Notes under the pieces: model-generated | Databases searched by the model: none | Told to the model about the DNA's origin: nothing | The model's input: the letters and a program-made list of their open reading frames with translations, nothing else | From: a virus | Strand: one strand, 5' to 3' | Virus record (IMG/VR): IMGVR_UViG_3300020473_000016 | Length of the DNA stretch: 64,000 bases | In this document: positions 1-2,346 of the stretch, in pieces | How the letters are laid out: every line of letters starts with the position of its first letter | Numbering within the stretch: the first letter of the stretch is position 1 | Made by a program: the position numbers and the translations under genes

Positions 1-200
1 ACACATACTTCACAAGCAATACACTTATCCATTTCAAAGTGTATACGTCCACGATACCTTTCAGATGGTATCAGTTTTTCATAAGGATACTGTATGGTTA
101 CAGGTCTCCTTCTCATATGATCAAAGGTTACTTCCAACCCTTGAAACATATATTTAGCAGTGTCTCTTATTTCTTTTAAGTAATTAAAGATTGCTTTCAT
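1..200 (-). CDS. ndhI: NAD(P)H-quinone oxidoreductase (NDH-1) subunit I, 3' part runs off the window
   Basis: Manual translation from ATG at 200: [66 protein letters not shown]. It has the NdhI signature [26 protein letters not shown] and the first CxxCxxC 4Fe-4S motif. Not in the ORF track. Confidence 0.95.
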
Positions 201-340
201 TGCATTGGATGGAACAAAAGGTCTGGGAAGAAGTAATTAAACTCTATGAGTATGACTGCTGTAACAGTCAACCAAATGGTTGCTACAACTGGTGCAGATC
301 TAAACCATTTAGTATAAAAGATTTTAAATAGGTTATTCAT
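197..340 (-). CDS. psaJ: Photosystem I subunit IX PsaJ (stand-alone, 47 aa)
   Basis: Manual translation: [47 protein letters not shown]. It has the PsaJ motif APVxATIW...[16 protein letters not shown]. The stop overlaps the ndhI start (ATGA). Confidence 0.93.
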
Positions 341-471
341 CGTTGGACATCGTGAGCACAACCATCACCAGTATAGTCATCACTATCATAATATCCTCCT
401 TTGGTTCCAAAGTAAAGGCTTAATGCTACAAAAGGAAGTGCTGCAGCTATCAGAAAGGTTTCGAGAATCAT
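337..471 (-). CDS. ndhP: NDH-1L small subunit NdhP (44 aa)
   Basis: Manual translation: [44 protein letters not shown]. One TM helix followed by FGTxxGxYDxDxYxGxGxAH, the NdhP C-terminal signature. ATGA overlaps on both sides. Confidence 0.88.
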
Positions 472-923
472 AGGGTTCCGTGTTCTCTACGTATCTCCCT
501 TAGTTCCTCGAAGTCTTTCTTCTTAGTTCCACCATCATATGCCCATGCATATCCTTCAGTGATCATCTGTTCGTTCAGTGAAATAATATCCTCGCCAACG
601 TAGAGCCAACCAAGAAGCCTGCCATACTTCCCAACGCCACCCTTAAGTTCAGTTCTAATAGTGAGTTCATCTTCACCTTTAATTGTTTCAGTTAGTTTTC
701 CTTTCAGCCAATTCGTAGCGTCGAGGCCCAGTGCTTTCTCTTCTAAATCTCTCGTTCTCTTCTCTGGGGTGTCCACGCCAGCAATCCTTACCCTCTCTTT
801 TTTGTAAAGGTCGAAACCAAGATCTATCGTGACATCTATCGTGTCTCCATCTAAAACTTTGTCTATCTTTGTCACTCGAAAGTTGTAACAACTCTTCCGA
901 CTTGGTGGTATCATCGCTCCCAT
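468..923 (-). CDS. Staphylococcal nuclease (SNase/thermonuclease)-like protein
   Basis: Motifs KVLDGDTIDV, RVRIAGVDTPE, GKYGRLLGWLY and NEQMITEGYAW. Confidence 0.88.
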   Translation of the reverse strand: MGAMIPPSRKSCYNFRVTKIDKVLDGDTIDVTIDLGFDLYKKERVRIAGVDTPEKRTRDLEEKALGLDATNWLKGKLTETIKGEDELTIRTELKGGVGKYGRLLGWLYVGEDIISLNEQMITEGYAWAYDGGTKKKDFEELREIRREHGTL

Positions 924-1230
924 AATTGAATTCCTTAAGTGAGCTATTTATCATATCTTCTATGGGAGTCCTATCTTTCTTAGACTCATGATCTCTTATC
1001 TTCTGGATCCACTGATCTGTAGGAAAGTCATGACCCATGTGTGCTTCTGCCTCTGGTGCAAATGCAGTAGATCCTATAATACCACCAGCACCAATACCAA
1101 TAGCACTAACAATAGCAACTACTTTTTCATTAGCACGAACTCTAAGAGTCAGTTCCTTCACATGACCCATCATGTGTTCCACCTTCGCTTCCAATATTGC
1201 GATCTTCGTTTCTTGACTGTGCTCCGTCAT
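688..1230 (-). CDS. Hypothetical protein (coiled coil plus one hydrophobic segment). The C-terminal third overlaps the nuclease gene.
   Basis: Part of track ORF 688..1275, with a likely start at MTEHSQETK (1230). The start choice is an inference. Confidence 0.5.
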   Translation of the reverse strand: MTEHSQETKIAILEAKVEHMMGHVKELTLRVRANEKVVAIVSAIGIGAGGIIGSTAFAPEAEAHMGHDFPTDQWIQKIRDHESKKDRTPIEDMINSSLKEFNYGSDDTTKSEELLQLSSDKDRQSFRWRHDRCHDRSWFRPLQKREGKDCWRGHPREENERFRRESTGPRRYELAERKTN

Positions 1231-1333
1231 TTGGCCAAAATTCATCATACTTAAATATGTAGTAAATTGAAACACCTACTAATACTAATAGTATAGCACA
1301 CATTATATTAATAGACCAAACCACATCATTCAT
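1142..1333 (-). CDS. Small membrane protein
   Basis: N-terminal TM segment VVWSINIMCAILLVLVGVSIYYIF; abuts the upstream ORF. Confidence 0.6.
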   Translation of the reverse strand: MNDVVWSINIMCAILLVLVGVSIYYIFKYDEFWPNDGAQSRNEDRNIGSEGGTHDGSCEGTDS

Positions 1334-1611: not shown

Positions 1612-1807
1612 AAATTCCGTATTTTGTTAAATCATACTTAGGCAACTTCAATGGTTCATGTTCCACTTTAGGTGGTTTGCCTATCTTATCCTCAAGTTCT
1701 GATACTATCTTCTTCTTAGAGATATGATATGGTGTTGGTGCATTTTGTAAGCACACTTGTAAACACAATAGTTCTTCTTCGTTAAAATCAAACGACATGT
1801 ATAACAC
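1604..1807 (-). CDS. Hypothetical protein
   Basis: ORF track; overlaps both neighbours. Confidence 0.6.
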   Translation of the reverse strand: MLYMSFDFNEEELLCLQVCLQNAPTPYHISKKKIVSELEDKIGKPPKVEHEPLKLPKYDLTKYGIYD

Positions 1808-2183
1808 CTTTCATTCCAGCACCTGCATGAGGTTCACATTGGAATTCATATTCACCTGCCTTATCAAAAGTAACAGGGAATTTCTCTCCACTACTAAATG
1901 CTAGATCAGGATGTGACAACTCTGGGTTGTTGAGGAATACTATATTATGAGGTGGTAAATCACCAATCATAAAAGTAACTGTATCACCTACTTTAACTGT
2001 CATTTCATTTGGTTCATAAACAAGATTACCTTTGTATCCCATTTGAATGTCCATTGACATAGTATTCTCAGTAGCATATGCTGTTGATGCTAATGTAAAA
2101 GAAAGGAATAATGATGTTAACATTATTGTAAGTCTGCTCATCCACCACATAATTTCATGTTTGTATTTTGTTATAGTAGACAT
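1788..2183 (-). CDS. petE: Plastocyanin
   Basis: Signal-like N-terminus (LFLSFTLASTAYA) and type-1 Cu ligands PHNIVF ... FQCEPHAGAGMKGVIHV. Confidence 0.93.
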   Translation of the reverse strand: MSTITKYKHEIMWWMSRLTIMLTSLFLSFTLASTAYATENTMSMDIQMGYKGNLVYEPNEMTVKVGDTVTFMIGDLPPHNIVFLNNPELSHPDLAFSSGEKFPVTFDKAGEYEFQCEPHAGAGMKGVIHVV

Positions 2184-2187
2184 TATA

Positions 2188-2346
2188 CTACTCCTTCATA
2201 CAATAGTCAATAAAATGAGGATGCTCCTTTAAGTAGGAGACATCCTCTTTTGAGTGTTCGATTGCATCATATGCAGTTTCTGCATACTCGCATACTTCGT
2301 AATGATGTTGTTCCGTATCGTGGTAACCTACGGTATAGTGAGTCAT
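2188..2346 (-). CDS. Hypothetical 52-aa protein (His/Glu/Tyr-rich)
   Basis: Manual translation: MTHYTVGYHDTEQHHYEVCEYAETAYDAIEHSKEDVSYLKEHPHFIDYCMKE. Fills the gap in the operon. Confidence 0.7.
   Translation of the reverse strand: MTHYTVGYHDTEQHHYEVCEYAETAYDAIEHSKEDVSYLKEHPHFIDYCMKE

Follow-up and report, generated by a model that had tools for sequence, protein, structure and literature searches.

The first lines of the window, which is the whole stretch of 64,000 nucleotides that was analyzed (IMG/VR virus record IMGVR_UViG_3300020473_000016), carried three short genes that close a long run of minus-strand genes, petE among them. These genes, and the two genes upstream of them that are referred to below, were as follows:

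1 to 200, minus strand: the 5' part of ndhI, in frame from 200 to 3 (66 codons; the gene continues past the window start), matched by TIGR00403
197 to 340, minus strand: a stand-alone psaJ with its ATG at 340 (47 amino acids plus TGA), matched by PF01701, PRK02733, and chain J of PSI
337 to 471, minus strand: ndhP (44 amino acids plus TGA), matched by chain P of NDH-1L and phrog_2173
468 to 923, minus strand: a staphylococcal-nuclease-type endonuclease, matched by PF00565 (E 5e-13) and phrog_452 "endonuclease" (E 1e-71)
1788 to 2183, minus strand: petE (plastocyanin), matched by PF00127 (E 7e-20)

The listing of open reading frames (ORFs) in the first 1.5 kb gave the order nuclease, ndhP, psaJ, and ndhI in the direction of transcription. 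The plus strand read tcat at positions 468-471, 337-340, and 197-200, which was equivalent to ATGA on the coding strand. At all three junctions (nuclease-ndhP, ndhP-psaJ, and psaJ-ndhI), the start codon overlapped the preceding TGA stop codon, beginning with the TGA of the nuclease gene and the ATG of ndhP. The sequence-only reading had placed ndhP at 337-471, psaJ at 197-340, and ndhI at <1-200 and had joined them to each other and to the nuclease by ATGA overlaps. Its coordinates and identities were exact, as judged by the ORF listing and by the family and structure matches described below, and the overlaps were correctly described at each of the three junctions. ATGA overlaps were also found at approximately 7 of the 63 same-strand junctions of the window in a crude gene call. 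Because these overlaps were fairly frequent, three consecutive ones were notable but not extraordinary, and they need not mark a special functional unit.

No Shine-Dalgarno-like sequence was found before ndhP, psaJ, or ndhI. Together with the overlap of start and stop codons in ATGA, this implied that ribosomes can probably restart on the next gene. An AAGGAG Shine-Dalgarno-like site preceded the ATG of petE, which was located 1.3 kb upstream of ndhP in the same direction. In several related IMG/VR loci, petE preceded the ndhP/ndhI genes by 0.2-1.5 kb, and in two it was downstream of them. No convincing promoter or terminator was found between petE and the window start, and the T4 late-promoter motif TATAAATA was absent near the cluster. 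The best sigma-70-like match (TTGACT-17-TATAAT, 11/12; window 2182-2210, minus strand) was not relied on as a promoter of the cluster because it overlapped the start codon of petE, which had its own Shine-Dalgarno site. Homologues of the endonuclease upstream of ndhP are annotated in P-SSM7, Syn9, and others. A further ORF of 195 residues upstream of the nuclease gene (window 688-1275, minus strand) ran 235 nt into the nuclease ORF (468-923) in another frame, so that it was uncertain where either the upstream gene really ends or the nuclease really starts; no Pfam match was found for the upstream part of this ORF.

PsaJ is a small PSI subunit adjoining PsaF, and NdhI is the two-cluster Fe-S subunit of NDH-1. 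Profile searches for PsaJ, NdhP, and NdhI, which the sequence-only reading had put forward as its own check, recovered the first and the last of these proteins, whereas NdhP was recognized by phmmer and phrog_2173 instead. The PsaJ of the window scored 60.0 bits with PF01701 against a cut-off of 22.4 bits, and 82.6 bits with NCBIfam PRK02733 (NF002743) against a cut-off of 69 bits. Its residues 8-46 aligned to chain J of PSI in 6tcl, 6jeo, and 1jb0-type entries with E-values down to 8e-15, and the protein, which had 47 residues, was of the size (approximately 40-50 residues) and had the single hydrophobic helix of a PsaJ. The N-terminus of NdhI matched TIGR00403 with an E-value of 6e-30, reaching 104 bits from 66 of approximately 180 residues against an equivalog cut-off of 302 bits, and the full-length NdhI of relatives scored 308-312 bits, above this cut-off. 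The fragment was cut by the window edge after CIACEVC, the beginning of the first 4Fe-4S motif, and was 97% identical to the 180-residue NdhI of MH319764. The full-length NdhI of one relative (L031), which was 97% identical over the shared 66 residues, had 180 residues and both CxxCxxCxxxCP motifs. The alignment of a relative's full-length NdhI with T. elongatus NdhI (6hum_I) extended from end to end, with an E-value of 9e-93. As judged from a relative that was 94% identical in DNA, ndhI is presumably intact in this phage.

The NdhP of the window (44 residues) consisted of one transmembrane helix followed by a C-terminal motif. Its residues 5-40 matched chain P of NDH-1L cryo-EM structures in phmmer (6khi and 6hum of T. 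elongatus, with E-values of 9e-8 and 4e-7, and also 6nby). The match covered the helix and the C-terminal motif, in which the pattern FGT.nG.YD.D.Y.G.G.AH was common to both proteins. NdhP also matched phrog_2173 with an E-value of 1e-16, and this family matched Synechococcus only among 14 control genomes. The homologue in P-TIM68 is annotated as putative NdhP. NdhP had no match among the Pfam or NCBIfam models, and either library may contain no NdhP model. The NdhP of T. elongatus is reported to attach to the distal arm of NDH-1L in the membrane, and a stable NDH-1L needs it (PMC4131877).

The viral copies of the three genes that were compared came from IMG/VR and from single-virus genomes in GenBank (51 unique ndhP, 38 unique psaJ, and 34 unique ndhI sequences). 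The median dN/dS was 0.11 for ndhP, 0.05 for psaJ, and 0.07 for ndhI, at dS values of 0.6-0.8; all three genes are under strong purifying selection. Marine metagenomes contained many members of the viral NdhP family, 214 protein clusters having E-values below 0.001. ORFs as short as 44 and 47 residues, of which ndhP had no Pfam or NCBIfam match, might be chance reading frames or decayed remnants without function, but matches to curated models and PDB chains were obtained, and the conservation data, namely dN/dS values of 0.05-0.11 and the 214 NdhP clusters, already refute this explanation, whose probability is close to zero.

The PsaJ of the window had a tyrosine, in EFNYFFPD, at the position of the host arginine (N-R-F). 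The 68 full-length viral PsaJ proteins all had this tyrosine, and arginine was present in 78 of the 80 PsaJ proteins of Prochlorococcus. Residues Glu33, Asn35, Pro39, Asp40, and His44 of the E-F-N-R-F-x-P-D...H motif were kept in the window. Some viral clades also altered the conserved Glu or His, which are chlorophyll ligands in PSI; both were kept in the window. It might be asked whether the altered viral subunits re-specify the behavior of the host complexes instead of replacing host subunits. The Arg-to-Tyr substitution in PsaJ could, for example, shift the positioning of PsaF or the docking of donors, or NDH-1L could be tethered to PSI. The consistent difference between viral and host PsaJ and the changes of Glu or His in some clades would fit such a role, as would the precedent of the viral PsaJF fusion, which reportedly widens the range of donors used (PMC5019241). 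NdhI and NdhP, however, looked conservative, the relative's NdhI keeping both cluster motifs along an end-to-end alignment with the solved subunit, and re-specification seemed very improbable to us.

A PsaJ of the viral type was also found in a cell. Prochlorococcus MIT 1012 (NZ_CP138919, ~529.6 kb; L123:6001-6144) had a second psaJ with Tyr in NYFFP and an MKSFF N-terminus, located away from psaF, and a normal psaF-psaJ pair elsewhere (L131). The second psaJ adjoined an ORF of 416 residues and was near a 2Fe-2S ferredoxin. The ORF of 416 residues looked like an integrase by eye but had no Pfam match, and this assignment was not adopted. The viral-type psaJ of MIT 1012 may be a case of phage-to-host transfer.

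Judging from the megablast matches of the window to cyanomyoviruses (Kyanoviridae), its giant structural ORFs, and its GC content of 36.6%, the window belongs to an uncultured T4-like cyanomyovirus of the Kyanoviridae. The best cellular matches of its PsaJ were all from Prochlorococcus, with 67-76% identity in the best tblastn segment, and for this reason the phage probably infects Prochlorococcus. In tblastn, neither the 64-kb window nor its complete relative G002 (202 kb) matched psaA, psaB, psaC, psaD, psaE, psaK, or psaJF; the combination that makes up a viral PSI cassette, psaA and psaB together with psaC and psaD, was thus absent from the window. PF00223, the family of psaA and psaB, had no match in 13 related records, comprising G002 and twelve incomplete ones. 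The cluster occurs without a reaction-centre cassette. The CheckV-complete G002 (IMGVR_UViG_3300020471_000006, 202.5 kb) carried, in order, a lipase gene, ndhP, an ORF of 82 residues, psaJ, an ORF of 52 residues, and ndhI, and psbA was present. The contig ends of G002 fell inside ndhI, with residues 1-91 at the end and residues 142-180 at the start, and approximately 50 residues were left uncovered by the tblastn matches.

The cluster was widespread, and a scan of IMG/VR with the NdhI fragment of the window gave 173 stretches. The best 80 of these 173 were mapped and, with 8 loci from GenBank, made up a set of 88 ndhI-carrying loci, which had the following arrangements:

ndhP-psaJ-ndhI (the window order), 29 of 88 loci
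ndhI-ndhP-psaJ, 10 of 88 loci
psaJ-ndhI-ndhP, 3 of 88 loci
ndhP-ndhI, 20 of 88 loci
ndhI-ndhP, 4 of 88 loci
psaJ-ndhI, 2 of 88 loci
ndhI only, 18 of 88 loci, 10 of them cut by a contig end
irregular, 2 of 88 loci

Cluster genes met at 116 junctions in these 88 loci, and 76 of these junctions were ATGA. The window order is the most frequent among the related uncultured viruses but is not fixed. The sequence-only reading had regarded the order and the coupling as the part that might be new and had named in advance the finding that would remove this novelty, namely that the same order was already common in described cyanophages. The same order was indeed common in public viral sequences, where ndhP-psaJ-ndhI was already the commonest arrangement and rotated, psaJ-less, and insert-bearing versions also occurred, and the claim of novelty was given up. 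Its suspicion that the viral parts were already known was justified, since viral ndhI, ndhP, and stand-alone psaJ have been published. Among cultured-phage records, PsaJ had no match in tblastn, NdhP was found only in P-SSM2 and P-SSM5 (tblastn) and in P-TIM68 (family model), and NdhI was found in P-TIM68.

The three observed orders of all three genes were rotations of one cyclic order. All three genes began with ATGA and ended with A before TGA, so that any order recreates the 4-nt overlap. A comparison of the DNA showed that the flanks kept their positions and that either ndhP or the ndhP-psaJ block had crossed to the other side of ndhI. The restriction to rotations could point to tandem duplication or recombination, with later loss of copies. 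Since the rotations may reflect just two or three rearrangement events, the missing mirror-image orders were weak evidence. On the reading favored below, the genes are interchangeable modules bounded by ATGA, and their exact order is not essential. In one IMG/VR contig (L051:3870-5647), ndhP-ndhI-ndhP-psaJ was followed, after a gap of 701 nt, by a third ndhP. Because the three copies were divergent, the contig could have arisen by recombination between different types of arrangement or be a chimera of the assembly.

One-helix ORFs of 82, 52, and 55 residues were inserted among ndhP, psaJ, and ndhI in many relatives, mostly with ATGA junctions (L043:3756-4004, L036:3843-4001, and L034:3837-4004 in IMG/VR; also in G002). 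These ORFs had no Pfam or NCBIfam match and are candidates for further virus-encoded thylakoid microproteins. In one viral contig (L087:3796-4026), a NifU-like (Nfu) Fe-S scaffold domain of 76 residues (PF01106, E 5e-25) was located directly upstream of ndhI, so that a factor for Fe-S assembly adjoined an Fe-S subunit.

The arrangement of the host genes was different. In the 80 Prochlorococcus loci fetched by PsaJ, psaJ followed psaF in 78, and ndhI or ndhP was found within 6 kb of psaJ in none. Because the hosts keep psaF-psaJ with no ndh gene close by, the cluster was built by phages and not copied from a host operon. The three genes may even form the nucleus of a viral "small-subunit kit" for thylakoid complexes whose ATGA-bounded parts can be re-ordered: ndhP, the Arg-to-Tyr PsaJ, and ndhI, joined in relatives by as many as three one-helix microproteins and in one case by the NifU-like Fe-S scaffold. 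Phages without a PSI reaction-centre cassette would use this kit to remodel the PSI and NDH-1L of the host or even to link both. We considered this broader possibility unlikely; if it were true, the viral-type psaJ of MIT 1012 would show that such a gene had returned from phages to cells.

The reading that we favored, with a probability of approximately 60%, is that three host-derived auxiliary genes were packed together by the phage and that their products enter NDH-1L and PSI to sustain cyclic flow and ATP. The phage lineage would have acquired ndhP, psaJ, and ndhI each from a host locus of its own and brought the three side by side. They would be co-transcribed with the upstream genes and translated by termination-reinitiation, with the ribosomes that end one gene probably restarting on the next. 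During infection, the viral products would be inserted into the NDH-1L and PSI of the host, and PSI-driven cyclic (and respiratory) flow, and hence the ATP supply, would be kept or raised once host gene expression fades. A role of this cluster in cyclic electron flow is plausible by analogy with P-TIM68, the NdhI of which is annotated as "confirmed using proteomics" (record KM359505). Infection by P-TIM68 enhances cyclic flow around PSI, as summarized in PMC6359870.

The loose linkage of the genes counts against a joint unit. ndhP and ndhI occurred without psaJ in 24 of the 88 related viral loci. A PsaJ-alignment scan gave 73 viral psaJ loci, of which 25 had neither ndh gene nearby, so psaJ is not always linked to ndh genes; 15 of these 25 had at least 700 nt on both sides, and the 25 loci carried more divergent PsaJ proteins. 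In P-TIM68, ndhP and ndhI are 36 kb apart, and P-SSM2 has ndhP alone. The genes could thus be adjacent without a joint function, as independent small genes that collect in a hyperplastic region, where short ATGA-bounded genes are easily shuffled, with no coordinated cyclic-flow unit. PsaJ would then act with the viral plastocyanin on the donor side of PSI, and NdhI and NdhP would just replace short-lived host subunits. The variable order, the frequent lack of psaJ or of both ndh genes, the unrelated small ORFs that separate the genes in relatives, and the ATGA overlaps throughout the window all agreed with this explanation, as did the change of upstream neighbor from the nuclease in the window to a class-3 lipase in MH319764 and G002. 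However, the genes in the clade nearest to the window remained adjacent although the same genomic site was rearranged at least twice, both ndh genes were within 4 kb in 45 of the 73 psaJ loci, and ndhI is again beside PSI genes in P-TIM68. Adjacency without joint function was therefore the main alternative, one that we regarded as possible but less probable than joint action in cyclic flow.

Control of photosynthetic electron flow by cyanophages affects carbon and energy through the most abundant phototrophs of the ocean. Many uncultured cyanomyoviruses without a PSI reaction-centre cassette carried one PSI and two NDH-1 subunits side by side, which fits the published idea that phages favor ATP-producing cyclic flow. 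Since viral ndhI, ndhP, and psaJ and the cyclic flow of P-TIM68 have been published, the parts and the functional idea were already known. Our results added the counts of the arrangements, the phage-built origin, the invariant viral tyrosine of PsaJ, and the unnamed membrane microproteins that accompany the genes.

A closely comparable phage was Prochlorococcus phage P-TIM68 (KM359505), which, like the phage of the window, is a T4-like cyanomyovirus with ndhI and ndhP. P-TIM68 has the order psaJF-C-A-B-K-E-D, then a membrane protein, and then ndhI, whereas a free psaJ was located directly between ndhP and ndhI in the window. It carries the PsaJF fusion and a whole reaction-centre cassette with no free psaJ, whereas the 64-kb window and its complete relative had no psaA or psaB. 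The window is not P-TIM68 itself, given that phage's lack of a free psaJ and its different layout. Its ndhP follows nrdB, far from ndhI, whereas the two ndh genes of the window were separated by psaJ alone. Both vPSI-7 (psaJF-C-A-B-K-E-D) and vPSI-4 (psaD-C-A-B) need psaA and psaB, of which the window had none. Cyanophage metagenomes are known to contain ndhI, ndhD, and ndhP (PMC10452541, PMC3877843, PMC12801897). Papers that cite Sharon et al. 2011 (PMC4511924, PMC5019241) count a viral psaJ standing alone in marine metagenomic DNA as one of three known viral PSI organizations, and as described there it resembles the window in being a single psaJ in cyanophage DNA without a PSI cassette. No paper that combined a cyanophage with ndhP, psaJ, and ndhI was found in the searched literature, in which Sharon et al. 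2011 was represented by its citing papers, and an earlier description of the exact adjacency is possible. The nearest record was MH319764, one of the unannotated "Marine virus AG-345/AG-341" single-virus genomes (also MH319754), with 94% DNA identity over window 1-471 and the same order and junctions; it differed from the window in having the class-3 lipase gene upstream in place of the nuclease gene. Other AG-345/AG-341 and IMG/VR cyanomyovirus records had differing flanks, rotated orders, or inserted microprotein ORFs. In the Prochlorococcus host, psaJ is located after psaF and PsaJ has Arg, whereas in the window psaJ was located between ndhP and ndhI and PsaJ had Tyr.
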